64,000 nt of DNA from a virus, in the IMG/VR virus record IMGVR_UViG_3300029807_000001, positions 29,667-93,666 of that record; one strand, written 5' to 3'. Below the pieces are notes generated by a model. The model had not been told where the DNA came from. It ran no database searches and worked only from the letters and a program-made list of their open reading frames with translations. Each line of letters starts with the position of its first letter. Positions within the stretch are counted from its first letter, which is position 1. Below are positions 1 to 30,205 of this stretch, piece after piece. A program made the position numbers and the translations under genes.

Positions 1-144
1 GCGAGAAGTTTACGGCTGCACACATCTATTATGCGTAGATGGAGATTAAAGAGAAAAGATGCTGAAAGACTATATGGTAAGGGTACTGCTCCAGTATTGA
101 GTAAGCCTTTTGCTTTACGACTATCGAGGTATGTAAACCCATGA
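1..144 (+). CDS. ERLYGK-family micro-protein 1 (5'-truncated by the window edge)
   Basis: Frame 1 is open from base 1 to TGA 142-144: ...MRRWRLKRKDAERLYGKGTAPVLSKPFALRLSRYVNP. The stop overlaps the next ATG (ATGA). Not in the ORF track. Confidence 0.65.
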   Translation, partial: ARSLRLHTSIMRRWRLKRKDAERLYGKGTAPVLSKPFALRLSRYVNP

Positions 145-320
145 TAACAGCAACAGATATACGTGTGAAACGTCAGTCAGCCATGATGCGACGGTGGCGC
201 ATAAAGAGAAAGAACGCGGAAAGACTATACGGTAAAGGCTCAATTCCTAATCCTCGTAGAATCTTTGGTGGACGATTGAACATGGTTCGCACTATAAAGG
301 ACATATTCGGAAAATGTTAA
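141..320 (+). CDS. ERLYGK-family micro-protein 2 (59 aa)
   Basis: MITATDIRVKRQSAMMRRWRIKRKNAERLYGKGSIPNPRRIFGGRLNMVRTIKDIFGKC. Close paralog of ORF1 and coupled to it by ATGA. Confidence 0.7.
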   Translation: MITATDIRVKRQSAMMRRWRIKRKNAERLYGKGSIPNPRRIFGGRLNMVRTIKDIFGKC

Positions 321-454
321 ACAACAATAGTGCGTTGAGGTCTGCTATGTATGCGTTAAGACAGTCTTACCAAATAGTAGACAAGGCTACGAAAGCAAGG
401 GAACGTAGAGAAAGAAAAGAACGGGAGAGACTTTATGGTAAGCAAGGCACATAA
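314..454 (+). CDS. ERLYGK-family micro-protein 3 (46 aa)
   Basis: MLNNNSALRSAMYALRQSYQIVDKATKARERRERKERERLYGKQGT. Overlaps the previous stop codon. Confidence 0.7.
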   Translation: MLNNNSALRSAMYALRQSYQIVDKATKARERRERKERERLYGKQGT

Positions 455-605
455 CGATGCTTTTGACGCATTGATTCTTGCTGCGGCTAGAACGAAAGAT
501 TCTTGGGAATGTGTGACGAAAGCTATAAAGGTAATGAAGCGTGGCTTTGTAAAACTGGAACGTAAACGAATAAAGAATCAGGAGCGTCTGTATGGCAAAC
601 GTTAG
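435..605 (+). CDS. ERLYGK-family micro-protein 4 (56 aa)
   Basis: GGAG-N7-ATG start. MVSKAHNDAFDALILAAARTKDSWECVTKAIKVMKRGFVKLERKRIKNQERLYGKR. Confidence 0.75.
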   Translation: MVSKAHNDAFDALILAAARTKDSWECVTKAIKVMKRGFVKLERKRIKNQERLYGKR

Positions 606-741
606 ATGGAATCCAGAACAATTCAAAGCGATTGATAAATACATGAAATCGTGTGTACGCAATTATGAAATACGTAAAATGGTTGATATACGTACAAAGA
701 AGAAAGAAAGGGAGCGTCTGTATGGCAAACGTAACAGTTAG
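592..741 (+). CDS. ERLYGK-family micro-protein 5 (49 aa)
   Basis: GGAG-N7-ATG start. MANVRWNPEQFKAIDKYMKSCVRNYEIRKMVDIRTKKKERERLYGKRNS. Confidence 0.75.
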   Translation: MANVRWNPEQFKAIDKYMKSCVRNYEIRKMVDIRTKKKERERLYGKRNS

Positions 742-904
742 AATAGGTTCTACAATACCACATCCACAATCCGTACTTGGACTAGCTCAGCTTCCAGCAC
801 TAATAAGGTCCAAGAAAGACTTCGAAGTACTAAGAAGACATCAAATACAAATATGGCGTAAGCATTGGAGAGAGAAGGAGCGGGTGTATGGCAAAAGGAA
901 TTGA
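722..904 (+). CDS. ERLYGK-family micro-protein 6 (60 aa, ERVYGK variant)
   Basis: GGAG-N7-ATG at 722, preferred over the track start at 653. MANVTVRIG...IWRKHWREKERVYGKRN. Confidence 0.75.
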   Translation: MANVTVRIGSTIPHPQSVLGLAQLPALIRSKKDFEVLRRHQIQIWRKHWREKERVYGKRN

Positions 905-1073
905 TGTACATTACAGCAACTGGAGCGTAGATGGCAAGTTGTATAAAAACGTTAACACCAAGATATATGCTCCATACGGACTAGATATGGTTCCTTACCT
1001 AAGTATGAGCCTTAAACAAATAAGAAAATGTAAGACAAATTGGGAGCGTTTATATGGCAAAGGAAGTAACTGA
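888..1073 (+). CDS. ERLYGK-family micro-protein 7 (61 aa)
   Basis: GGAG-N7-ATG start. Ends KQIRKCKTNWERLYGKGSN. Confidence 0.75.
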   Translation: MAKGIDVHYSNWSVDGKLYKNVNTKIYAPYGLDMVPYLSMSLKQIRKCKTNWERLYGKGSN

Positions 1074-1548
1074 TAAATCAAGATACCCCTCCAAGTATAG
1101 CCCTAGCGAGTACGTCACTGGAGCACAGTACATCATCGAACTCGTGTGTGAGTACCGAGCTAGACATTTGAAGATAGACTTACCTAGACAATTCTGGAAG
1201 CTTCCAGAGTGGGCTAGTTATTTCTCTGCTCAAACTAGGTCTGTTCATAAACTATTAAGCAGTTTCGATGAAAGGGCCATAATAAATACAGTTAAAAATA
1301 GCAAGGTCAGGAGTTTACTGCCGAGGTGGATACCTTCTGCCGTGGCTAAGGAACAGAAAAAAATAGATGGAGCAAAAAAACAGAAAGAACAAGAAAATAT
1401 CAACAAACCTAAGAGCAAGAAGGGTATAATAGATATACCGACGAGACGCACTGTCCACCACGGCACTTCTGCTATGGACAAGCTCTTAGCACTTGATATT
1501 GAGGCATACGAAAATGGCAAAGAAGACTGCGAAGAAAAAAGAGACTAA
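1054..1548 (+). CDS. hypothetical phage protein (164 aa)
   Basis: GGAG-N7-ATG inside the last ERLYGK repeat. Overlaps the recA start. Confidence 0.8.
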   Translation: MAKEVTDKSRYPSKYSPSEYVTGAQYIIELVCEYRARHLKIDLPRQFWKLPEWASYFSAQTRSVHKLLSSFDERAIINTVKNSKVRSLLPRWIPSAVAKEQKKIDGAKKQKEQENINKPKSKKGIIDIPTRRTVHHGTSAMDKLLALDIEAYENGKEDCEEKRD

Positions 1549-2590
1549 AGAAGAACCTAAAAAGGTACTGACGATAGAAGACAAGTTGAAGAAGAAGTTT
1601 GGAGATCAAGCATTTACTACTGGTCGTTACATTACCGAAGCAAAGAAAGTTATAGTGCCAGTTAGTCCCGTTATAGATTGTATGCTCGGTGGAGGAATTC
1701 CATTCGGGTCTTTTGTGATACCTACTGGCCCTCCCAAGGTCGGTAAGACCGTTACGGCACTAGATATGGCTGCTACTGCCCTGAAAATACCTTCCGAATT
1801 TGAAAACAAGCGTCACCTATACTTCTTCAATATAGAAGGTAGGCTTAACGCTAGAGACCTAGCTGGTATCCACCACATGATACCACATATAGACGAAGAT
1901 GTTACTGTTATAGGATCGTATCCTGGTAAAATCTATACCGCAGAAGACTATTTAGACATAGGTGAACAACTTATTAATGAGAAGCCTGGATGCATCTTTA
2001 TATTTGACTCCTTCTCTCAGCTATGTAGCAAATCTGGCAGAGCAAACGAATGGGACGGAAAAGCTTATCGAGACGATGTACCTAAAATGTTATCGCAGTT
2101 CTGCAAGAGAATCTCTAACGTCATACCTATCAACAAGTCTATAGTAGTAGGAATTACACACCAGATAGCAAACACTGGCTTCGGATTTTCGGCATGGGCA
2201 GAAGCGTCTGGCACAAAGATTCAATATCAGGTAGACGTAAAACTAAAAGCATGGAGTAACGACTGGAAGGACGGAGAGACTGATACTGTTATAGGTAAGA
2301 ATATCGAATGGCAGTGTCTATGTTCTCCGCTACTGAACGGTCCTAATGTGCCAAAGTGTACGTCTAAGTTTAGATACGGGTACGGACTAGACAAGCCTTT
2401 AGAATTAGTGAATATGGCTATAGATTTAGGTATTATTCGTAAGGCTGGGTCTTGGTATTATTTTCCAGACGAAAGCAAGGTGCAAGGAATCGAATCCGCG
2501 AGACCAAGACTAATGGAAGATGACGTACTGTATCAAACTGTCAATGAGAAATACCGTGACATGATGGGACTGCCTAGTGTTAGTATATGA
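1514..2590 (+). CDS. recA: RecA/UvsX-family recombinase
   Basis: LGGGIP, Walker A GPPKVGKT, IFIFDS (Walker B), ASGTKIQYQVDV, and C-terminal GIIRKAGSWYY. Likely start is MAKK at 1514, after GAGG. Confidence 0.92.
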   Translation: MAKKTAKKKETKEEPKKVLTIEDKLKKKFGDQAFTTGRYITEAKKVIVPVSPVIDCMLGGGIPFGSFVIPTGPPKVGKTVTALDMAATALKIPSEFENKRHLYFFNIEGRLNARDLAGIHHMIPHIDEDVTVIGSYPGKIYTAEDYLDIGEQLINEKPGCIFIFDSFSQLCSKSGRANEWDGKAYRDDVPKMLSQFCKRISNVIPINKSIVVGITHQIANTGFGFSAWAEASGTKIQYQVDVKLKAWSNDWKDGETDTVIGKNIEWQCLCSPLLNGPNVPKCTSKFRYGYGLDKPLELVNMAIDLGIIRKAGSWYYFPDESKVQGIESARPRLMEDDVLYQTVNEKYRDMMGLPSVSI

Positions 2591-2972
2591 TCTAGAAAAT
2601 AATGAAACCAAGTGGCAGATGGCAGGCAAGGAAGTTACACTCGATACTAGACCGCGATCAGCGTTGCATGTAAAGGCACGAGGTCTAATAAAAGAGAGGT
2701 TCCCTACACTCCTAGTATTAGAAGAAGTACCTATAAAAACACATAGGACTAAAACCCTGTACCTGGACTTCTATCTACCACTGAGAAAATTAGTGGTGGA
2801 GGTCCACGGCCAGCAACATTATAAGTATAGTAGTCAGTTCCATTCCACGGCACTGGAGTTTTTGAAGCAACAGAAAAATGACGAAGAAAAGATACTGTGG
2901 TGTGAGATTAACGGCATAGAAATTTTAGTACTACCTTACGATACGCAGAAAGATTGGAAAGAACAGTTATGA
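2577..2972 (+). CDS. Vsr/DUF559-like endonuclease
   Basis: EE...LYLDFYLP...VVEVHGQQHY...D.EK..WC..NGI motif pattern. Confidence 0.8.
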   Translation: MLVYDLENNETKWQMAGKEVTLDTRPRSALHVKARGLIKERFPTLLVLEEVPIKTHRTKTLYLDFYLPLRKLVVEVHGQQHYKYSSQFHSTALEFLKQQKNDEEKILWCEINGIEILVLPYDTQKDWKEQL

Positions 2973-3457
2973 GTATAACACAAAAAGATAAGTTAAAGAT
3001 GCGTAACCAAGTGTTGGACGACTACGAAGGTAAGGTAGGTCTCCCAGAGAACAATGCTCCAGGAGACAACGCTGAGTTGCAGGAATATTTAAGTATGGAT
3101 AGACAGGTGATAGAAGCTATGAGTCCTAACAGGGCTATATCTATTTCTATTAGACTATCTCAGTATCAGTTTTATCTACAGAGATGTCTCAATAGGGAGA
3201 AGGCTATTAAAACTTGGTCAGAATCTGAGTTAAATTCTATAGCCGCCGTGAGTATATCTCAGTATGATAAGTTCCTCAAACATGACATGAAAATGGCTTT
3301 GATAGCAAAAGATAACTCAGCAGCTAAAGAGCTATACAAGATGCTTGCGTATGCTACCCAGAGAATAGACAGACTGTCTGAACTATCTAGTGGTATTAAG
3401 AATCTGTCATACGTGATCTCTCTCATATATAAACACAAGCTAGGAGAAGCTTCATGA
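2969..3457 (+). CDS. helical protein, possible UvsY-like recombination mediator
   Basis: ATGA-coupled ORF that looks all-helical and sits just after recA. The function is a positional inference only. Confidence 0.4.
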   Translation: MSITQKDKLKMRNQVLDDYEGKVGLPENNAPGDNAELQEYLSMDRQVIEAMSPNRAISISIRLSQYQFYLQRCLNREKAIKTWSESELNSIAAVSISQYDKFLKHDMKMALIAKDNSAAKELYKMLAYATQRIDRLSELSSGIKNLSYVISLIYKHKLGEAS

Positions 3458-4173
3458 CGCAGAAGAAAATAATACAAGACCTATCACAATTGTCCGATGA
3501 AGAACGGGCCAAGATAGAGAGCATGATCGGCTCGATGCTGGAAGAAAAACCTAAGAAAAATAAAGGTCCGAAGAAAAAAAGTAAGGGTCCGCAGCAGCAA
3601 AAACAGCAAAATAAGTCAAGGAAGAAAAGAAAAAAGTACAAGAAGGTTGACAATCCTGATAATGAGGTGATAATTGAACAGGAGGTTGGTCGCTCAGGAC
3701 CACGAAAGAAAATTCAACTACCGAACGAGCCAGAGCAAAGTAAAGGTTCCGCTGGAGTCGGCAGGACAGCACCGAGAAATCCCGAAAACCAAATAACAGA
3801 GTCTCCAAGACGAGGAGGTAGTAGTAGAAGACGAGGAAGTCCAGTACAAATGGGAAGAGGGAAGGGAAACATTCAGGCAGTAGGTCAGAAGGTAGTACTA
3901 ACTGGCGAAAACAAGTTTGAGAAGATGAGAGATAGGAACAGTTGTAAGAGCGACACTAAGATAGATAAAAAACTATGGACAGATAGAGAAGCTTTACAAA
4001 GACCAGATGACTTTAAGTTTGTAGAGGTACAATGCACTGGACCGTTTCGAGACGACGGTGTAATTGATGGTTGTGGACTATGGTTTGACGTAAACCCTGC
4101 GTTACTATTAAGAGATGAAGAGACGGGTAATATTACATACACTTGCAACAATTGTACGAGATCAGGAAGATAG
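3454..4173 (+). CDS. basic disordered protein with C-terminal Zn-ribbon
   Basis: K/R/G-rich middle. C-terminal C-x12-C ... CNNC. Confidence 0.6.
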   Translation: MTQKKIIQDLSQLSDEERAKIESMIGSMLEEKPKKNKGPKKKSKGPQQQKQQNKSRKKRKKYKKVDNPDNEVIIEQEVGRSGPRKKIQLPNEPEQSKGSAGVGRTAPRNPENQITESPRRGGSSRRRGSPVQMGRGKGNIQAVGQKVVLTGENKFEKMRDRNSCKSDTKIDKKLWTDREALQRPDDFKFVEVQCTGPFRDDGVIDGCGLWFDVNPALLLRDEETGNITYTCNNCTRSGR

Positions 4174-4179
4174 AGATAA

Positions 4180-5646
4180 ATGGCAGTAACATACGACGTA
4201 GCGGCTGAAAGAGCTGTGCTGGCTGGAATATGTCAACATGGCGCAGACATGTTTTTGGACATAACAGATTTGGTAAAGGTAAATACATTTTTTGGTGATT
4301 CTAATAAGATTATCTTTAAGTGTTTAGAGCATATATGTAAAGCAGATAGTTCGGCAGTAGTTGATCTACCGTCTATATTATCTGCGGCATCTGAGCTAAG
4401 CCTTAATCATATATTTGAGAGGAAAGAGGAAGGTAAGCATCTTAATAGTATTCTACAGTTAAGAGTAGAGCAGACTAACGTTAGAAAGTTCTCTGCCAAA
4501 CTTAGACGCTTGGAGATTGCTAGACTGATCCACAATCAGGGAGGACTTCTACAAGAAAGAATGTCCGACATAGATGGTTCGGAACCTATCGCTCAGCTTA
4601 TAGGTATAGCAGAAAATACTATCTTTGATTTTACCTCACTGTTCGAGGGAGAGACCGAGCTAAAGCCGAAGAAGATTAGCGATGGCATTAGAGAGTACAT
4701 ACAATACTTAGAAGATAATCCTTGCACTACTATTGGCATACCTACTGGCTTTCCATCCTTCGATGAAAGCATTGGAGGTGGAGTAAACCCAGGCGTTACG
4801 ATGCTAGGAGCTAGACCTAAAGTAGGCAAAACTACTCTGTCTATGAACATGGCTAAGAACATTGCTCGCAACGGTATCCCAGTTCTATACCTCGATACGG
4901 AAATGATCGAGAAGGGTAGATACCGAGATATCTCAGACAAGCTCACCGCTATGATAGCGGACGTAGACATTAAGACTGTAAAGATGGGGCAGTTCAAGGA
5001 GGACGAAGCGGAAAGGGCTCGTGTGTGGGAGGCTGTTGACGAGATTGAGAAGCTTCCTATCTACCGCATGGACATTGCGGGTAAATCTTTTGAGGATCAG
5101 TTGTATGTTATGAGACGATGGGTACAGAACACGGTCGGACTCAACGCTGATGGTACTGCAAAGGACTGCGTTATTCTATATGACTACTTAAAGGTTCAGG
5201 ACACTAGCGGGATTACTGAGTCTATCAAGGAGTATCAGGTTCTGGGTTGTATGATGACTGCACTACAGAACTTCGGTATTAGATATGCGGTTCCTATTAT
5301 AGCTTTCACTCAGCTAAACAAAGATGGCATTGACAGTGAGACCTCGGCTGTTGTGTCAGGATCGGACAGGCTGTCATGGTTCTGTATCAGTTTCAGTATC
5401 TTCAAGTATAAGTCTAATGAAGAGATAGCAGAGGATGGAACGAACAAGGGCAATAGAAAGATTGTTACTGTGATGTCACGGTACGGTCCAGGACATGACT
5501 TTGGAGAGTACGTACATGCTTACATGAATAAATATCGTGCTCAGATAGACGAGGTTGACCTTAAAAATCTAAGCGTGGGAGATGATTTCATATTCGATAA
5601 TGACGGTGAAGACGGAGAGATGGTAGACGAGATACCTTTTGACTAG
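4180..5646 (+). CDS. dnaB: replicative DnaB helicase
   Basis: AERAVLAG N-domain, GIPTGF, Walker A GARPKVGKT, LDTEM, YDYL, TQLN, SRYG. Confidence 0.95.
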   Translation: MAVTYDVAAERAVLAGICQHGADMFLDITDLVKVNTFFGDSNKIIFKCLEHICKADSSAVVDLPSILSAASELSLNHIFERKEEGKHLNSILQLRVEQTNVRKFSAKLRRLEIARLIHNQGGLLQERMSDIDGSEPIAQLIGIAENTIFDFTSLFEGETELKPKKISDGIREYIQYLEDNPCTTIGIPTGFPSFDESIGGGVNPGVTMLGARPKVGKTTLSMNMAKNIARNGIPVLYLDTEMIEKGRYRDISDKLTAMIADVDIKTVKMGQFKEDEAERARVWEAVDEIEKLPIYRMDIAGKSFEDQLYVMRRWVQNTVGLNADGTAKDCVILYDYLKVQDTSGITESIKEYQVLGCMMTALQNFGIRYAVPIIAFTQLNKDGIDSETSAVVSGSDRLSWFCISFSIFKYKSNEEIAEDGTNKGNRKIVTVMSRYGPGHDFGEYVHAYMNKYRAQIDEVDLKNLSVGDDFIFDNDGEDGEMVDEIPFD

Positions 5647-8782: not shown

Positions 8783-9600
8783 GAGTATTGGTAACTGGAG
8801 GTACTGGATTCTTAGGTAGGGCATTGATACGGAGTTTGCCTTGTCCAGATGATTGTATTACGGTCGTCGCTCGTAACGAGGGTAAACTGACTGACTTACA
8901 GAATTGTCATCCTTGTATAAACATTGTTTGTGGAGACATAGCCGATCCCCACATAGCAGAAAAAGCCACTAGAAATATAGATAAGGTGTATCATCTAGCA
9001 GCTTTTAAGCATGTAGGATTAGCGGAAAAGGATACGTTTCAATGTATCAATACTAATATTATTGGAACCATGAACCTACTAGAGAAAGCTTGGGTCTCCA
9101 GCTTCGTATATATCAGTACAGATAAAGCAGCTAGTGTAACTGGAGTGTACGGAGCGTCTAAATTTATAACAGAACGTCTAGTGCAAGAATATCAGAGAAT
9201 GAGACCTGCAAATAGATATACTATCGTTCGTTATGGAAACGTTTTGTATTCTACTGGGTCAATTCTACCAAAATGGAAAAAGGCTTTGCAAGCAGGAGAA
9301 GAGATAGTCATAACTGATCCAGAAGCTACTAGATTCTTTTGGACCGTAGACGAAGCTATCAGGACTGTGTTTGATGCTGAAAGAATGTCACAAGATGCAA
9401 ACGCTTGGTGTCCATATATAAAAAGTATTAGCATGGGCAACTTACTTACAGCTATGCAAAACAAGTACGGCGAAGCAACAAGCATTAAGAAGATTGGACT
9501 CCAAGCTGGGGAAAATCTTCATGAGAAAATGTTTACAGACGGACTAGACAGTAGTGAAGTAGAACAATATACTATAGAAGAAATAATGGAAAAGATATGA
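8779..9600 (+). CDS. UDP-N-acetylglucosamine 4,6-dehydratase (PseB/CapD-like SDR)
   Basis: TGGTGFLG, HLAAFKHV, ISTDKA, YGASK, VRYGNVLYSTGS, GENLHE. Confidence 0.9.
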   Translation: MRVLVTGGTGFLGRALIRSLPCPDDCITVVARNEGKLTDLQNCHPCINIVCGDIADPHIAEKATRNIDKVYHLAAFKHVGLAEKDTFQCINTNIIGTMNLLEKAWVSSFVYISTDKAASVTGVYGASKFITERLVQEYQRMRPANRYTIVRYGNVLYSTGSILPKWKKALQAGEEIVITDPEATRFFWTVDEAIRTVFDAERMSQDANAWCPYIKSISMGNLLTAMQNKYGEATSIKKIGLQAGENLHEKMFTDGLDSSEVEQYTIEEIMEKI

Positions 9601-11504
9601 CGTACTTCCCACTACACGTACACTCGCACTTTAGTCTACAGGACGGACTTAGTACACCTGAGCAAATATCTACTCGCTGTGAGGAGATAGGAGTAGAAGG
9701 TTCTGCAATCACAGACCACGGAACAATGTCTGGACATATCCAGTTCCTGTCAGAGATGAAGAAGTCAAAGGAAAAGTCGGCACAAAAAGCGTTGCTAGGA
9801 TGCGAATTCTACGTATGTAAGGAAGACGCAGAGATACAAACCGAGAGAAATAGAAAACTATCCGACCTGTGTATCATAGCACGTAACAAGGACGGATGGA
9901 GAGATATGGTCCAGATGATGTCTAGGGCTAATGATAAGAATACCTTCTACCATAAGCCACGACTAGACCTCGACAGGATAGCAGAATTTACAACTAGCGG
10001 AAATGTAATGGCTTTCAGTGGTCATGTTGGATCTTGTATGGCCAACATACTATTCGATGAAGAGGGAGAGATCTCTAGTCAGTGGAGGATAGAAGGATGT
10101 CGTTTAGCTAGGTGGTTTGAAAACGCCTTTGGTAAGGACAACTTCTTTCTAGAGGTACAGTTGATAGACTCGGCCACTTTTCCCAGACATAAGATTATTG
10201 CAGAGTGTATTAGAGCCATCAGTAAAGACACGGGAATTCCATGTGTGGCAACACCGAACTCTCACTACGCCAGAAAAGAAGACGCTGTAGATCAACAGAT
10301 TCTTATCTGCTCTAAGATGAACTCTACCTTGCAACAAGCAAGTAAGGCATCGTTTGGAGTTAACGGATTCTTTAGGTGTTCACAGTATCATATACCATCG
10401 TTCGTAGAGATGCAAGAGTTTCATACGGCGGAAGAGTTAGACAATACATTACTGTTTGCATCTAGAGTGGATGACTACAAGGGGATATTAAAGAGTCCTA
10501 TCCTACCTAACTTTCCATGTCCTGACGGAATGAATGCCGACTCATATTTGAGGCACTTATGTAAAGAAGGGTGGCGTAATAAGGTTCAGGGAGTAGTCAA
10601 TCCTGCGAAGTTTCAGGAGTATGGAGATAGAGTTAAGAGGGAGTTGGAAGTACTACAGGGAGCTGGACTTTCTAGTTACTTCCTTATTGTAGCAGACATC
10701 ATTAATTTTATTCGTAGAAACAAATGGCTTGCAGGCCCAGGTAGAGGGTCTGCTGCTGGTAGTCTAGTATCCTACTTGATGGATATCACAGCTATTGATC
10801 CTATGCCTTTTGGACTACTCTTTGAGAGGTTCTATAACGCTGGTAGAAATACAGCGGACCACATATCTATGCCTGATGTTGATATGGACGTGCCTAAGTA
10901 TGCACGAGAGCATGTCCTCAAGTATATGAGAAAAAAGTACGGAGAAGATCATGTTGGGCAGATGGTAACATTCCAGACGATTAAGGGACGTGGAGCTTTA
11001 ACAGACGTGCTTCGTGCTCACGGAGGTATATCCTTTCAAGAGATTAAGATGGTGACTAAGAATATCGTAGAAGAACATAAGATCACAGACGAACTCCAGA
11101 AGATGAAACAGGACACAGGAGAATCTTCTATCTTACAATGGTGTCTAGAACACACTCCAAAGAAGTTAGACCAGTGGTGTAGTATTGGCGATGACGGTAA
11201 CCTCATCGGTCCTCTTGCTCAACGCTTTACTCAGGCAATGAGGCTAGAAGGGACAAAGACCGTACAGTCTAAGCATCCAGCGGGAGTAGTTATAGCACCA
11301 GAACCATTGGGCAATATGTGTCCTATGATTTTCGATGTTGAAAGCGGTCAGAAAGCTGCGGCGTTTGAGATGGAAGACCTTGAAGCTGTAGGAGGTCTAA
11401 AGGTTGACGTACTAAGTATTACGTCACTAGACAAGGTCATGGGAGTTTGTCAAGGTTTAGAGTTTGGAGACATACATGAAATTTCAGGAACTATCTGTGA
11501 GTAG
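9597..11504 (+). CDS. dnaE: DNA polymerase III alpha, N-terminal half (PHP + palm/thumb)
   Basis: LHVHSHFS..DG, ITDHG, GPGRGSAAGSLVSY, LLFERF, catalytic MPDVDMD, HPAGVVI, LKVDVL. The ORF ends just after the third catalytic Asp. Confidence 0.93.
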   Translation: MTYFPLHVHSHFSLQDGLSTPEQISTRCEEIGVEGSAITDHGTMSGHIQFLSEMKKSKEKSAQKALLGCEFYVCKEDAEIQTERNRKLSDLCIIARNKDGWRDMVQMMSRANDKNTFYHKPRLDLDRIAEFTTSGNVMAFSGHVGSCMANILFDEEGEISSQWRIEGCRLARWFENAFGKDNFFLEVQLIDSATFPRHKIIAECIRAISKDTGIPCVATPNSHYARKEDAVDQQILICSKMNSTLQQASKASFGVNGFFRCSQYHIPSFVEMQEFHTAEELDNTLLFASRVDDYKGILKSPILPNFPCPDGMNADSYLRHLCKEGWRNKVQGVVNPAKFQEYGDRVKRELEVLQGAGLSSYFLIVADIINFIRRNKWLAGPGRGSAAGSLVSYLMDITAIDPMPFGLLFERFYNAGRNTADHISMPDVDMDVPKYAREHVLKYMRKKYGEDHVGQMVTFQTIKGRGALTDVLRAHGGISFQEIKMVTKNIVEEHKITDELQKMKQDTGESSILQWCLEHTPKKLDQWCSIGDDGNLIGPLAQRFTQAMRLEGTKTVQSKHPAGVVIAPEPLGNMCPMIFDVESGQKAAAFEMEDLEAVGGLKVDVLSITSLDKVMGVCQGLEFGDIHEISGTICE

Positions 11505-13139: not shown

Positions 13140-14843
13140 ATGGTTGAGATTAAAGACGGATACGCTCATTACGAATGTGGGTGTAAGTTTGAAGTAACGC
13201 AAAATGGTCCACCGATTAGACTTAGGGTAGACCCTCGTATAGAGACCTTACCTAAAGACTGTAGTAGAACGTGGAATCTATTCGCTACTGGTAATACTAA
13301 AGGTGTATTTCAGCTTGAGACCAGATTCGGACAGCAGTATTCAAAGAAGCTGATGCCCGAAAACATAGAGCAGTTAGCTGCGTTGATGGCTATCCTACGA
13401 CCTGGATGTACGCAAAGTTATCGAGGCAGTAAGAACATTGCTGAGCACTACATAGACAGAAAGAATGGCGTAGAAAAGGTAGAGCAGTTTCATGAAGCAC
13501 TAGCACCTATTCTTGTAGGAACTTTTGGTGAGATGATTTACCAGGAACAGGCTATGCAGATAGCTCAACTCATAGCTGGCTTCACCTTACAACAGGCTGA
13601 CGTACTACGTAAGGCTATTGGTAAAAAGAAAGCCGACGTTATGGCCGAGGTTAAGATTGAATTTATAGCAGGCTGCAAGTCCGTAGGTATAGTAACTAAG
13701 GAAGAAGCGGAAGAAATCTTTGGGTGGATCGAGAAGTCACAGAGATACTCGTTCAACAAGAGTCATGCAATCTGTTATGCGTTTAATGCATATCAGACAG
13801 CATACTTCAAGGCTCACTTTCCCGTAGCTTTCTTTACTTCTTACTTATGGTATGCTAAAGACAAGTCAAAGAAGTTCGACGAGATTAAATTACTCATAGC
13901 CAATACTAACCAGATGGGTATTAAGGTTCTGCCTCCTGATTTTAATAGCGACAACTCTAGATTTAAGAGAGTGTACGATAAGATCAGCGACAATTATAAC
14001 GATTACGACGACAGTATCTACTTTGGCTTCGGTGACATAAAGAGTGTTGGAGAGAACCGTGTCAAGAAAATGAGTAATGCTATATACATAGCGGAAACAT
14101 CTCTAGATAAGCATAGAAGTAAGTGGACCTGGATAGAGTTTCTAGTACATTTCTCTCAGCAGGTAGACAGTACCATAATGAAAGGTATCATAGAAGCTGG
14201 AGCACTGTCTCACTTTAAGATAGCTCGTACTAAGATGTTGTTTGATTACGAACAGTACTCAGTACTAACTAAGAAGGAACAGGCATGGATTAAACAGAAT
14301 CTCACTGCCGATAATATCATAGAACTACTGGAAAAAGCTGTAGCTCCATATAGTAAAGGAGGTAAGAAGATTAATGGTCCTTGCAATAACTACAAGAGAG
14401 TACAGAAACTAAAGGATATAATAGTACTAGCTAAAGATCCTCCTTATTCAATGGAGGACTCTACAGACTGGATAGCCCGTATAGAGGAAGCTAGATTAGG
14501 AGTATCTATCACAGCATCTGTACTGGACTCATGTAAGGACTTAGATCAGGCTAATTGTACCATACTAGAGTTCAATAAGCAACAGGAGAAGTCTAGTGGA
14601 ATCTTCATAGCTTGTCAGATAGAGGAGATCAGGACGCATATCACTAAGACTAAGCAAGAAGAGATGGCTTTTGTGACCGTCAACGACCAGGAGGACTCCC
14701 TAAGCTGTGTGGTTTTCCCGAAAGATTGGCCAGAGATCAAAGCTTGTGGAGCATGTGTGACAGAAAACACTGTTATTATAAGCGGAGACAGGTCGAAAAA
14801 TAAAGATAGCTTTATTATTAAGAAAATGTGGCAGTTAACTTGA
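13140..14843 (+). CDS. dnaE: DNA polymerase III alpha, C-terminal half (fingers, HhH, OB-fold)
   Basis: TKGVFQLE, LRPG, IYQEQAMQ, ADVLRKAIGKK, YSFNKSHA, LPPDFN, GDIKSVG, MAFVTVND. Confidence 0.93.
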   Translation: MVEIKDGYAHYECGCKFEVTQNGPPIRLRVDPRIETLPKDCSRTWNLFATGNTKGVFQLETRFGQQYSKKLMPENIEQLAALMAILRPGCTQSYRGSKNIAEHYIDRKNGVEKVEQFHEALAPILVGTFGEMIYQEQAMQIAQLIAGFTLQQADVLRKAIGKKKADVMAEVKIEFIAGCKSVGIVTKEEAEEIFGWIEKSQRYSFNKSHAICYAFNAYQTAYFKAHFPVAFFTSYLWYAKDKSKKFDEIKLLIANTNQMGIKVLPPDFNSDNSRFKRVYDKISDNYNDYDDSIYFGFGDIKSVGENRVKKMSNAIYIAETSLDKHRSKWTWIEFLVHFSQQVDSTIMKGIIEAGALSHFKIARTKMLFDYEQYSVLTKKEQAWIKQNLTADNIIELLEKAVAPYSKGGKKINGPCNNYKRVQKLKDIIVLAKDPPYSMEDSTDWIARIEEARLGVSITASVLDSCKDLDQANCTILEFNKQQEKSSGIFIACQIEEIRTHITKTKQEEMAFVTVNDQEDSLSCVVFPKDWPEIKACGACVTENTVIISGDRSKNKDSFIIKKMWQLT

Positions 14844-25703: not shown

Positions 25704-28700
25704 TAAGCTGGTAATGTTAGGTCACCAGTAGGTACTATGTCTACCATTTGACCACAGTTGTTAAAGATTAATACTTTTCTTGTTGCAGTAATGGTAACTA
25801 GACCGCTAGGAGAACATTGTACGGACATTCCGTCAATAATAGGCTGTTCAATTCCTGACATACTATAATCTTGAAACTTATCTTTGAAGTCTAGCTCAAT
25901 ATTACAGCTACCAAGGTCTGTAGCTTGTAGACATGCTCCGAGAGATATCTCTGCCGCTCCACTGATACCTCCTATGTCCATATACACTCCCACCTCCGCT
26001 TGGCATCCGTCTGCGGTTAGTTGATTCAGGTTTAGTCCCTTACCGTACACTAACGTACTTACGAAACCCGCAGGGCTGCTAGAACTCACACAGCTAGTGC
26101 TGTTACTCATGTTTATACCAGCCCCAATCCATGCGTCACAGCTATTATTAGGAGTCTGCATCCTGATTCCGTTACCAGCTTTAAGTACACTAGCAAGTCT
26201 AGTACTATCGGGAGTACCAGTTACGCAAGCAGCAATAACGTCTGGATGAAAACCAGCCTGAATATCTACAACGCATATATCATCGTCTTGTGGATCAATT
26301 CTAAATCCTTTACCGAAGTTTAATGTGGTATAGTTTTGTAGTGTTAAGTGACCACTAGGACTGAGGTATCCGAATCCAGCATTGGTCTCATCAAAACAGA
26401 ATGTCTCACTAGACATTTGAGTATTAGACTTATGACTTATAATAGAATATTCACATTCGTAAGGGTCGAACTCTGCTATAACAACGTCACCAGATTTCAT
26501 GCAAGCATAGCCAACCTTATCTACAGCCATGAATTGAGGAGTAGCGATAGGACTACCACCAGAATCGTATAGTGTGGGTCCGCTAGTCTGTGATGCCACA
26601 CCAGAACCTAGTGGATCAATATCCGATTGTAACGTTCCTACTAACGATCTAAATTGCGGAATTGTCCAAACGGCTCTCGCACGATCCCATCTGAAATCAA
26701 CGGGACCAACAGGCCACGACTTAGACTTACGTAGGAAGTCATCCATGAACTTGTGTTCTAGGTTTGTTTCCGCGAAATTACCACTACCAGCAGCGCCTTC
26801 TGAATCTACTTTATTAGGAACTGGGAATCCGTCTAGATCATATCCCCATCCTTGCATTATCATTGGACCTCTAATAGCCATACCTCGGTATGTGTTATTG
26901 TGGTCAGATACTGTTATGTCTTGCGTATCTCCATATCCCTGAATAGGCATCACGATACTAGATGGTGGAACTCCAGTTCCGCGCCCTATCATTTCGATAT
27001 CGTGGCCAACAGTAGGAGTATCAGTTCTATCGTCTGCTACACTGCTTCTAGAGAGTCCAGTAGGATTACTAAATGGGTCTAAGTAATTAATATCAATATC
27101 TAGATTGTAAGCGTTATAACTTCCTGCCTCACCCTCGATGTCTATTGGAGGTTGTGCTCCTCGACTTACCGTTTTTTGACAGTTGCTTGTCGGATTAGCA
27201 TAGGTGGGAAGAGTAGCGTGAGTTGCTGTCGAGATAGGACGTAACAATCCGTCCATACTCATAAGAGCCTTTTCTTCATACTTAGCAGCCATCTCTGTCG
27301 AAGCTTCTGCCACTGACACAGTACCTACTAATGATCTATCGTATTCTCCAGAGTTCCACGGAATAATCTGCCCACCAAAAACTTCATGAGCAGTATTAGG
27401 TAAATTCTTTTGAGGCTCTAGTAGTACTCCAGGAGCTTTGCCAGCAGCCTTATTGATAGCGTCTATATTTTGGTTTCTCAGTCTATGTAAACCAAACGCA
27501 CGTAACTGTTTATTAAAGTTTAGTCTTTGGCGACCCACTTTCTTCATACGTTCAGCATTACCTCTAAAGAATCTACCGTATTTAGGAGTCCATGTTCTTA
27601 GATTGTATGTTGTCTGTAATCCTTCTGGACCTACCGCCGTAGTTAGTCCTGTGATATTAGGTCCGTAGGTTCCGTCCCAAGGCAGTACGGCAGTGAAGTA
27701 GTAGTCAATTCCGCTTATTGCAGCGGTTCCGCTGGTTCTGTTTTCTACTAAGTTAGCACCGAGTCCACCGTTAAAGGGATTGCCGCTATCTGCCGCTAAC
27801 AGTTCCGCTCCGAGAGGAAGGTCTGGACTACCAATGACGGTAACCTGTCCCTCTTCGGCTACTTGCTGATTTGTAATCCCTTCGCTTGCTGTTGCATTAC
27901 CCGCTAAGTTTAAGGTTGTGAAACCTCCATACTCCCAAGGTACTAGTCCGTCGTCATGAGTAACTTGTACTCCTCCTACAGCACCAGCAGCACCCCAAGG
28001 ACCATAAGAGAGAATGTTAGATTTAATACCGAAGCCACACGCATCAGGAGTCTCGGCTCTATTAACTGCTGATAACGCCAGAAGCACTAAACCAAAGTTC
28101 TCTTGAGCATCTGCTATATTGTTGTTCTTAACTGCTCCCTTAAAATTCTGTAAGAGTTTATGCAGACCAGCAAAGTTAATGGCAATATCTGGATTATCTA
28201 GCGATACGTTTTTGATGGGGGTAGGCAAAGTTACAATAGCTCTAGGACTAAATAGTGTAGATTTGTCTAGGTATACATATTCTTCGTTTACTCCAAGCTT
28301 TACCCATAACTTACCAGCGGTAGATATGTAATCATTAGTACTTAATTCTGCTGATGTAACGCCATTAACATTATCAAATCTAGAGAAAGCTCCCAGTCTG
28401 TTGTCGTCTAAAGTAAAGAAGTCAGTTAAGATTCCTGGGTGGGCAAGTTCTAATACTGGACTCACTTCGGTCCAACCGCCCTCGTTTGGCTGTTCGCTTA
28501 ACTGTATAAGACCGCTTTCCGAATCGGTACGTCCGCAAGTAAATGGAAGACGCACTTGATATGTCTTACCGTAATGAGTATCCGCTATCTTTTTAATCCA
28601 TTTGAATCCTATTTGAGCAACTTCTAGTTGCATATCTACATCATTAGCTTTAGGAGCGTTAGCCGCTGGAAGAAAATCTGCTGCTCTAAGAGCGTTGCCA

Positions 28701-30205
28701 CCCGCTGCACCAAGATTCTTAATGATCTTGACCATGCCTTGTATATTAACAGCTCCTTTGAGGTTTGGCAGCACTAAGGCTTGATATAATTCTGTGTTAG
28801 TATTAGCTGCAAAACTTAACCATATATCATACCCAGACTGTGCGGCTACTAACTCGTCTTCGCCTATCTCTAACGTTGCTGCTATAGCTCTATTGTATTT
28901 TGGGTCTACTAGTTGTATAGCTAGGTCGTCAGTGAAGGCATCGAAGAACCACCATCCGTCTCCATCTAGCTCTGGAACGATAGCATTACCAGTGTTAGGA
29001 TTAAGACCGAAGTATGGTATAATCATGTCATCAGCTTCTGGAGGAACTGGTTGACCGTCGCCTTCTGGATCGTCGCTTTGTTCTGCCTGATAGAAACTGT
29101 TCTTTGGACCTCCTACTACAAAAGCCTGCGTAATGTCATTACGTAGTTCACGGCCTTTATTGTAACTGATAACTTTGCGGTCGGCAGATGCGACAAACGT
29201 ATCAATACTATTTAGTGCAGGAGCGTTAACTCTATCGGCAGTTCTGATCTTGATAAACTTATGGATTCCCGAACCTAGAACTCCACCAACAACTGGAACT
29301 AACTCTATGTAGTAGTCATGTCCAGAATCTTGAGTGATCTGAGATATGGTGTCCATGATAGAGGTACTAACGCCATTGAATCTCCAGTAAGTAGGAGCGG
29401 TAGGTAGTTCATTAAGGTCGAGGAAGTAGTAAGCTAAATTGCCAACGTCAGCAGGCATAATACCCATACCAGAAGCGGGAAATGATGAAGGAGCCTTGAA
29501 CGCCAGTCTACCGTAAGGAGACCAGATATTGGTTGTGGCAGGGAACGAAGATAGTAAGATACGCTGAGCACTAAGAATCTGGTTCCACTGCATACCATTG
29601 TGATTAACATCTGCCCCACCATAGAATTCAGCAGGAGAGCCGAATACTGTACCGTCAACGCTACCATCTCCAGCACTGTATACTCCTGGAGCAGATTGAA
29701 ACGTCTCTGGGCATGAAACGCCGAACGTTTCCATATATCCAAATGCATTGATAAGATTATATACGCTACCTACACTTCCAGCATACTCATTAATGATGAT
29801 CTGTGCATTGTCTAGTATAGCACGAGGATCTACTATCTTAATTTGGTATGTAGGATTACCAGATATAGAGTGGCTCTCTTCCCAGCTTTGCACCTGACCA
29901 GCAAACTCAAAGTCTCCGACTCTAAAGTATACGGGAGCACCAATGATATTGGTAGTCAGTCCGAAGAAGCCTGGATCGGCTATGGTCCAGTCTTGTTCGG
30001 TCAGGTCGGTATCGAAGTACTTCTTAGGTGATCCAGCAGGAGGAGCACATGTGTCTTCCACCACCTGTACCGTGATCTCTGACTGCTGTTCATTCCATCC
30101 AGCAGACGCGGAGAAAGACATAACGCTGCATCCTAAGAACATCGTCTGGTCGAATCCTCCCCAAATGTTACCAGGAGTACATGTATTTTTTACTGGAGTG
30201 GCCAT
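25694..30205 (-). CDS. large tail-tip/baseplate hub or central fibre protein (1503 aa)
   Basis: Downstream of the TMP and Dit-like gene. Beta-rich hub-like N-terminus and Cys-rich fibre-like C-terminus. Confidence 0.65.
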   Translation of the reverse strand: MATPVKNTCTPGNIWGGFDQTMFLGCSVMSFSASAGWNEQQSEITVQVVEDTCAPPAGSPKKYFDTDLTEQDWTIADPGFFGLTTNIIGAPVYFRVGDFEFAGQVQSWEESHSISGNPTYQIKIVDPRAILDNAQIIINEYAGSVGSVYNLINAFGYMETFGVSCPETFQSAPGVYSAGDGSVDGTVFGSPAEFYGGADVNHNGMQWNQILSAQRILLSSFPATTNIWSPYGRLAFKAPSSFPASGMGIMPADVGNLAYYFLDLNELPTAPTYWRFNGVSTSIMDTISQITQDSGHDYYIELVPVVGGVLGSGIHKFIKIRTADRVNAPALNSIDTFVASADRKVISYNKGRELRNDITQAFVVGGPKNSFYQAEQSDDPEGDGQPVPPEADDMIIPYFGLNPNTGNAIVPELDGDGWWFFDAFTDDLAIQLVDPKYNRAIAATLEIGEDELVAAQSGYDIWLSFAANTNTELYQALVLPNLKGAVNIQGMVKIIKNLGAAGGNALRAADFLPAANAPKANDVDMQLEVAQIGFKWIKKIADTHYGKTYQVRLPFTCGRTDSESGLIQLSEQPNEGGWTEVSPVLELAHPGILTDFFTLDDNRLGAFSRFDNVNGVTSAELSTNDYISTAGKLWVKLGVNEEYVYLDKSTLFSPRAIVTLPTPIKNVSLDNPDIAINFAGLHKLLQNFKGAVKNNNIADAQENFGLVLLALSAVNRAETPDACGFGIKSNILSYGPWGAAGAVGGVQVTHDDGLVPWEYGGFTTLNLAGNATASEGITNQQVAEEGQVTVIGSPDLPLGAELLAADSGNPFNGGLGANLVENRTSGTAAISGIDYYFTAVLPWDGTYGPNITGLTTAVGPEGLQTTYNLRTWTPKYGRFFRGNAERMKKVGRQRLNFNKQLRAFGLHRLRNQNIDAINKAAGKAPGVLLEPQKNLPNTAHEVFGGQIIPWNSGEYDRSLVGTVSVAEASTEMAAKYEEKALMSMDGLLRPISTATHATLPTYANPTSNCQKTVSRGAQPPIDIEGEAGSYNAYNLDIDINYLDPFSNPTGLSRSSVADDRTDTPTVGHDIEMIGRGTGVPPSSIVMPIQGYGDTQDITVSDHNNTYRGMAIRGPMIMQGWGYDLDGFPVPNKVDSEGAAGSGNFAETNLEHKFMDDFLRKSKSWPVGPVDFRWDRARAVWTIPQFRSLVGTLQSDIDPLGSGVASQTSGPTLYDSGGSPIATPQFMAVDKVGYACMKSGDVVIAEFDPYECEYSIISHKSNTQMSSETFCFDETNAGFGYLSPSGHLTLQNYTTLNFGKGFRIDPQDDDICVVDIQAGFHPDVIAACVTGTPDSTRLASVLKAGNGIRMQTPNNSCDAWIGAGINMSNSTSCVSSSSPAGFVSTLVYGKGLNLNQLTADGCQAEVGVYMDIGGISGAAEISLGACLQATDLGSCNIELDFKDKFQDYSMSGIEQPIIDGMSVQCSPSGLVTITATRKVLIFNNCGQMVDIVPTGDLTLPAYCE

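Follow-up and report, generated by a model that had tools for sequence, protein, structure and literature searches.

The stretch analyzed here, referred to below as the window, comprises 64,000 nucleotides (nt) of the viral record IMGVR_UViG_3300029807_000001 and starts at base 29667 of a 93,666-bp IMG/VR viral contig that is estimated to be 62% complete. At its left edge lies a row of small, chained protein genes, here called the array, whose products share a peptide ending in ERLYGK. A six-frame scan of the whole contig, together with the map of open reading frames (ORFs), delimits 14 such genes of 46-98 amino acids (aa) at contig positions 28343-30739, all on the plus strand. This row fills a variable slot of the phage's replication/recombination module and is specific to its lineage. 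Each of its units consists of an unrelated head, followed by a basic, purine-coded segment of about 20 aa that is predicted to be helical, ends in E-R-L-Y and is closed by G-K. A previous sequence-only reading of the window had described seven of these ORFs and suspected that the array continues past the window edge. All seven are present at the coordinates then assigned to them, and upstream extension of the contig adds seven more units. The gapless tiling that had been proposed extends to the full array, in which the 14 ORFs span 2,397 of 2,397 nt.

The window contains units 8 (its 3' part) to 14, all of them on the plus strand. Unit 8 (61 aa) starts at contig position 29625, 41 nt before the window, and occupies window positions 1-144, with ERLYGK in the middle of the ORF at 64-81 and a 20-aa extension behind it. 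Unit 9 (141-320; 59 aa) likewise carries the motif in mid-ORF, at 219-236, followed by an extension of 27 aa. The motif belongs to the tail in unit 10 (314-454; 46 aa; motif at 425-442), whose GGAG-N7-ATG starts unit 11, and equally in unit 11 (435-605; 56 aa; motif at 582-599) and unit 12 (592-741; 49 aa; motif at 712-729). Unit 13 (722-904) has 60 aa when counted from the ATG embedded in the preceding motif, and its tail carries the variant ERVYGK at 878-895. Its start at 722 is an ATG with GGAG 7 nt upstream, a signal that the longer same-frame GTG and ATG starts lack. Unit 14 (888-1073; 61 aa; motif at 1044-1061) is the last of the row and supplies the Shine-Dalgarno (SD) sequence and the ATG of a conserved 164-aa gene.

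The exact peptide ERLYGK occurs in 10 of the 14 units; the remaining four carry ERLYGI (unit 2), DRLYGK (unit 6), ERLHGK (unit 7) and the ERVYGK of unit 13. A degenerate codon pattern for ERLYGK matches seven times in the 64-kb window, always on the plus strand and between positions 64 and 1061, with no match expected from 100 shuffles. When a 32-aa profile of the tail was run against the contig, it returned exactly 14 matches of 40-50 bits, all within the array, and at most 7 bits anywhere else. An independent repeat finder, furthermore, recovered the DNA family of the tails as direct repeats of 41-53 nt with 60-80% identity.

A non-coding repeat array with accidental ORFs, be it a set of origin iterons, a regulatory RNA or an assembly artefact, would be compatible with the position in a replication module and with 14 direct repeats on one strand. 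However, the joint chance that all 14 frames stay open from start to motif is about 1e-22 in shuffled sequence, and the ORFs tile the region completely. A log-odds score for codon usage, derived from 15 long genes of this phage, favours the proposed frame in each of the 14 genes, with positive values there and negative values in the two others; the heads alone, after removal of the first 3 and the last 22 codons, give the same result. The conservation of the motif is 3-periodic, and the distance from motif to motif is irregular (115-277 nt) but phased as 3n+1. Rfam contains no match for the array, inverted repeats were not found at the junctions, and neither promoter-like sites (11, as compared to 12.3 +/- 3.8 in shuffles, none recurring at junctions) nor terminator-like sites (4, with 3.6 expected) exceed chance. 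The full tiling, the open frames, the in-frame codon usage and the lack of an Rfam match or of a promoter or terminator excess therefore render non-coding explanations very unlikely, and we strongly disfavour this one as extremely improbable.

The junctions between the genes reveal a second role of the motif. Aligned on the Glu codon, they have the consensus GGAG CGT CTG TAT GGC AAA CG, which reads in the +1 frame as GGAG, a 7-nt spacer and ATG GCA AA. In 12 of the 14 junctions, the DNA that encodes ERLYGK is the SD sequence and start codon of the next gene: GGAG (once GGAT) stands 7 nt before an ATG, and this ATG lies 14-38 nt ahead of the stop of the current gene. The embedded ATG opens N-termini that read MAN, MAK, MAS, MVS, MVN or MGN, the frame steps by +1 with each gene, and all 11 motif-to-motif steps with an embedded-ATG start measure 3n+1 nt. 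In the 12 units that supply a start, the motif ends 1-9 codons before the stop, and in 10 of them within 4 codons. The final junction starts the conserved 164-aa gene downstream of the array. As a start context, ATGGCAAA is found in only 3 of 76 other genes. This dual role is an addition to the sequence-only reading, which had named the SD and ATG bases only in the context of a refutation test.

As read from the sequence, the array appears to be an extreme case of ordinary translational coupling. It resembles translationally coupled overlapping genes in that, at the same 12 junctions, the upstream ORF contains the SD and the start of the next gene and stops only after them; unlike ordinary coupled pairs, however, it reuses one sequence of 18-40 nt fourteen times, and this sequence encodes a peptide common to otherwise unrelated proteins. 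The nearest described system is that of the PeSL (promoter-early stem-loop) cassettes, in which an intergenic sigma-70-type promoter and a terminator hairpin punctuate the hyperplastic regions of T4-type phages (Arbiol et al. 2010, PMC2839356; Comeau et al. 2014, PMC4122927). In both cases, a repeated short expression signal flanks small ORFans in a variable slot between core genes, and the units are self-contained, so that whole genes can be gained or lost through recombination from repeat to repeat. In contrast to PeSL, which acts on transcription, the present repeat lies inside coding sequence, is translational (SD and ATG) and encodes a selected peptide tail, and it lacks a sigma-70-like promoter or a stem-loop terminator above chance. 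Integron gene cassettes differ as well, since the junctions carry no attC-like inverted repeats and there is no integrase among the neighbours scanned.

Selection was considered separately for the peptide and for the start site. At the peptide level, the motif had been proposed to be held by synonymous codons, and this is the case across all copies: the Arg codon is AGA six times, CGT seven times and CGG once, never Ser, while Leu is written as CTG, CTT, CTA, CTC or TTA, with a single GTG (Val) in unit 13. Along the 18-nt motif, there is little or no variation at the first two positions of the codons, save for the synonymous A/C at the first Arg position, and the third positions vary. The ratio of non-synonymous to synonymous divergence (pN/pS, mean over all pairs) is 0.12 in the ORF frame as compared to 1.48 and 2.35 in the other frames. 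With a pS of 0.68, synonymous divergence within the motif is near saturation; therefore the copies are old, and recent gene conversion does not explain their identity. The SD-ATG spacer encodes Arg-Leu in 13 of 14 copies. Selection on the peptide persists when the SD and ATG bases are set aside, as the Arg and Leu codons of this spacer vary almost only synonymously.

At the level of the start signal, two bases are retained although the peptide leaves them free. The base before the Glu codon closes the codon of a variable residue and doubles as the first G of GGAG; 13 of 14 copies have G there. Likewise, T ends the Tyr codon in 13 of 14, and this base provides the T of the embedded ATG. In unit 7, Tyr is replaced by His through CAT, which preserves the embedded ATG. 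The same 18 nt are thus under two constraints: the peptide is subject to purifying selection, and the SD and ATG bases are selected as well. The earlier claim of selection on the peptide stands, but part of the conservation of the motif stems from its role as the initiation region of the next gene.

Units 8 and 9 separate the two layers. Their junctions read TGAA and GGAA, respectively, in place of GGAG; the Tyr codon of unit 9 is TAC, which leaves no ATG, and the ATG embedded in unit 8 leads into a short frame rather than into unit 9. The genes downstream of both units start elsewhere, yet ERLYGK is retained.

The start signal at most junctions, together with the retention of the G before Glu and of the T of the ATG, both of which are free for the peptide, would also fit a repeat that acts only as RNA or DNA, that is, as an initiation cassette and/or a recombination site that shuffles ORFans, with ERLYGK and the helix as by-products. 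In related phages, the slot (described below) is a hot spot at which genes are gained and lost, and recombination at the PeSL cassettes of T4-type phages offers a known analogy (PMC2839356). Against this explanation stand, however, the low pN/pS in the ORF frame alone with saturated synonymous sites, and units 8 and 9, which keep the peptide without serving as a start. Furthermore, the SD-ATG spacer has, to our knowledge, no function as RNA, and yet it maintains Arg-Leu by way of 3 and 5 different codons. Exact identity between two junctions extends over 22 nt at most, a short stretch for homologous recombination. Overall, we regard a repeat that works at the nucleic acid level alone as decidedly unlikely.

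Conservation of the tail reaches about 14 residues upstream of ERLYGK. Specifically, counted from the Glu, position -7 is almost always Arg and position -3 Lys or Arg, and these residues make up a stripe with Arg +1 and Lys +5 at i, i+4, i+8 and i+12 beside Leu-Tyr. The AlphaFold2 model of the tail, for which the 14 paralogues served as the alignment, predicts one helix over residues 9-29 of 32, with a predicted local distance difference test score (pLDDT) of 85, that ends at the Tyr with the Gly as its cap. For unit 11, a single-sequence AlphaFold2 run with a mean pLDDT of 77 predicts two helices, the second of which (residues 21-53) includes the tail as far as the Tyr. Whole units have isoelectric points of 7.7-11.9, and their positive charge is carried almost entirely by the tail. 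Pairing between tails was addressed by a complex prediction of unit 12 with unit 11, which scored 0.01 in a run without controls and speaks neither for nor against such pairing.

Purines make up 72% of the tail sequences as compared to 58% of the sequences upstream of other genes and 55% of gene bodies. The tails' richness in Lys, Arg and Glu (K/R/E) is therefore specific to the array and not due to a general leader rule; a purine-rich leader as a phage-wide rule was rejected on the same figures.

Short charged helices of comparable composition are known from the arginine-rich RNA-binding peptides of lambda N, P22 N and HIV Rev/Tat, and from ER/K-type single alpha-helices. The predicted tail helix would resemble these in being short and rich in Arg, Lys and Glu, with a basic stripe at i, i+4 and i+8. 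It differs from those motifs by its invariant L-Y-G-K cap, and no RNA target such as a boxB-like hairpin was found.

A further explanation for a basic tail at this position would be an action of the nascent chain in cis, in which ERLYGK and the basic helix slow termination from within the exit tunnel and thereby bring about re-initiation at the ATG 14-38 nt upstream. In agreement with this possibility, ribosomes are known to be slowed by strongly basic nascent chains, and the position of the motif 1-9 codons before the stop in 12 units places the next start within reach of a terminating ribosome. In units 8 and 9, however, the motif lies 20-27 codons before the stop and no re-initiation site is present there. 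Such a mechanism, moreover, gives no reason for maintaining 14 different heads, and no likeness to known arrest peptides was seen, although no systematic search for one was made. We consider it very improbable.

The heads, in contrast to the tails, are unrelated as proteins, with a mean z of 0.04 in pairwise comparison; the best pair reaches a z of 5.8, which corresponds to a p of about 0.03 after 91 comparisons. No similarity between them was found at the DNA level or across frames. They range in length from 11 to 74 aa and in composition from all-helical to Pro/Gly-rich. The design of a variable head on a constant tail, as first suggested from the seven units in the window, is thereby borne out, with unrelated heads and a selected, shared tail.

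A derivation of the heads from other genes was also considered and rejected, as the only recurrent weak match, the SIMRRW of units 8 and 9, was treated as chance. Specifically, the pre-tail segments SIMRRW of unit 8 (window 40-60) and AMMRRW of unit 9 (window 195-215) resemble a SIMRRW motif in the DnaB-like helicase of related phages. In the present phage, the helicase motif reads YVMRRW (near window 5100-5125, in the gene at 4180-5643), and with an E of about 0.4 per match the resemblance is probably due to chance.

The shared tails can also be read as those of ordinary tandem paralogues, in which one helical gene was duplicated, the heads diverged by substitutions and indels, and the tail is part of the fold plus an overlapping start rather than a separable tag. 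The tails form a DNA family that can be recognised across 41-53 nt, their roughly 20 aa are clearly homologous, and the most similar pairs are the adjacent units 3/4 and 8/9. The model of unit 11, furthermore, is a helical hairpin, so that the tail helix could pack on a helix of the head. On the other hand, neither protein, DNA nor cross-frame comparison reveals residual similarity among the heads of 11-74 aa, and their range from all-helical to Pro/Gly-rich does not suggest one fold. Junction identity amounts to 55% between neighbours versus 48-54% between units farther apart (permutation p = 0.24); the notion that neighbouring units have longer shared junctions is, by the same test, not supported. 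An origin of the whole design by simple tandem paralogy is, in our judgement, rather unlikely. The array may have grown either by duplication with divergence or by the capture of foreign heads.

Downstream, the slot is bordered by the conserved 164-aa gene (window 1054-1548, plus strand), which starts at the ATG inside the last ERLYGK. Its product matches no Pfam or PHROG family, and its homologues lie directly upstream of a recombinase gene in 80 related viral contigs. In the present phage, this RecA/UvsX-like recombinase (window 1514-2590, plus strand) matches PHROG 97 'UvsX-like recombinase' at 2.7e-28 and Pfam RecA_C at 3.3e-9; it has 312 homologues, the closest of which are 65-68% identical. 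A DnaB-like helicase, a primase and a split DnaE polymerase follow. Upstream of the array, the gene order is class II ribonucleotide reductase (a weak match), PhoH, an HNH endonuclease, a zinc-ribbon protein and three ORFs without a family. The last ORF before the array encodes a 190-aa protein whose N-terminus, as we read it, is helix-turn-helix-like.

For comparison, 87 related viral loci (731 kb) were fetched with alignments of the recombinase and of the 164-aa protein; a single recombinase query had found no related loci, so that an alignment query was needed. Synteny around the slot is conserved in these loci. In the 17 loci that contain both flanking genes (190-aa and 164-aa), the two are adjacent in 8, at a distance of 0-17 nt, and separated in the other 9 by 200-680 nt with a single unrelated ORF; in the present phage, 2,380 nt lie between them. 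None of the 87 loci contains a tail-like sequence (best match 11 bits) or any other clustered peptide or DNA repeats of this kind. The absence of the array from related phages had been named as a result that would count against it, and the array is indeed missing from them. The relatives are distant, however, with recombinases that are 34-61% identical. The array is therefore better explained as a lineage-specific expansion in a variable slot than as a non-functional feature.

The slot ORFans of the relatives are 131-175 aa long and belong to no known family (L051:6084-6524, L095:4622-5017 and L058:3861-4388). Those of loci L095 and L096 resemble each other and the rest are unrelated. The slot is a recurrent insertion point.

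Homologues of the array were sought on a larger scale. A full-length alignment searched against 5.8 billion proteins (as clusters) retrieved only the contig's own proteins, and the tail profile searched against 1.84 billion representatives returned only the 14 self matches. The statement that no described family has this design is upheld, as neither PHROGs nor Pfam contains a match and the best PDB sequence has an E of 0.47; the ESM Atlas gave no usable matches. At the DNA level, the exact motif has 41 single chance matches in IMG/VR. Patterns of two motifs have no match in IMG/VR, 15 in JGI metagenomes and 9 in 185,579 prokaryote genomes; the JGI and prokaryote matches were ruled out as arrays, all being unrelated tandem or palindromic non-coding repeats. 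Among them, the metagenome Ga0172373 (about 70% G+C) contains tandem repeats of 69-150 nt (L066, L067:155-510 and 3872-4031, and L070:2800-3100) with the palindrome AGACGCTCC-AA-GGAGCGTCT, one frame of which happens to read KRRSKERLYG. They resemble REP-type extragenic repeats from a high-GC bacterium and have no relation to the array described here.

Cultured phages offer no close relative: blastn of window positions 1-3000 found no match among them, tblastn of the 164-aa protein found none, and their recombinases reach at most 25% identity. Of eight large ORFs on the structural side that were compared with PHROGs, only the large terminase matched. With no close cultured phage, the lineage is therefore known only from metagenomes, and it appears to be a deeply divergent, uncultured lineage of large phages.

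The available data are compatible with a model that we hold to be somewhat more probable than all else taken together, in which the array is a row of self-contained, dual-coded units that are translated as a chain and provide a shared binding helix with diverse heads. The row would be translated as a coupled chain, either by re-initiation or from a strong start site of its own at each junction. Such chain translation would yield similar amounts of the 14 heads, and the last junction would drive the core gene downstream. One polyanionic partner, such as nucleic acid or an acidic protein surface, would be bound by the constant helix in every unit, and the heads would add diversity. Given that the units measure 3n+1 nt and that each has its own start and tail, entire genes would be gained or lost in frame by any crossover from one junction to another. 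The terms 'docking tag' and 'effector library', by which the sequence-only reading had described the design, are conjecture.

Several observations weigh against this model. The common partner is postulated from the conservation pattern, namely the basic stripe next to Leu-Tyr. Since unit 9 has its closest paralogue in unit 8 and vice versa, with 75% identity over 61 nt, their retention of the motif without a start function represents one evolutionary event. An RNA-level share in the K/R/E composition, in the form of purine-rich RNA just before the start codon, is not fully excluded. Folded heads gain little support from two models, with that of unit 3 in the ESM Atlas reaching a pLDDT of 0.31. 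Finally, the array is present on one contig only, and the searches described above found no homologue and no orthologous array.

A bolder version of the model takes the junction as a portable three-in-one module that combines a start signal, a point where recombination leaves the frame intact, and the coding sequence of a docking helix. With such a module, the phage could capture or create arbitrary short heads and express them in equal doses, as a combinatorial library of adaptors with one docking partner in common. We regard this version as unlikely; if true, it would constitute a gene-cassette system at the level of translation that needs neither an integrase nor a promoter.

Designs that combine a constant tag with variable bodies are known from other systems. 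The internal proteins of T4 carry a constant N-terminal capsid-targeting sequence, which is cleaved in the prohead, on a polymorphic body, and further examples are the cargo peptides of encapsulins and the clamp-binding tails of T4 gp43, gp33 and gp55. The array resembles the T4 internal proteins in placing a short constant peptide on otherwise unrelated small phage proteins at a polymorphic locus. It differs in that its constant part is predicted to form a basic helix, placed at the C-terminus or within the protein, and the two are not similar in sequence.

Among phages, small proteins form the main reservoir of host-takeover and counter-defence functions yet to be discovered, and gene callers routinely miss proteins of this kind. 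The array packs 14 different proteins into 2.4 kb with zero non-coding DNA, and it presents one 18-nt sequence that is both a peptide code and the start of the next gene, with selection visible for each layer. Should the tails indeed dock on a single partner, the array would amount to a natural library of the type 'one tag, many heads', and the 20-aa peptide would provide a handle for finding that partner.

Two further observations concern neighbouring genes. The DnaE-type polymerase is split into two genes at window positions 9597-11501 and 13140-14840, with about 1.6 kb of other ORFs between them; one gene encodes the PHP domain and the Pol III alpha core, and the other the finger and HHH domains. 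Upstream of the array, a 70-aa ORF with a GTG start (contig 27075-27287; L050:7075-7287) overlaps the 3' end of a 155-aa ORF (26782-27249) in another frame. The 155-aa ORF is not conserved in L051, while the 70-aa product, which contains the motif APHQA, is conserved in the relatives L051 (4756-4977) and L056 (5344-5556); the 70-aa ORF may be the real gene, or both may be genes that overlap.

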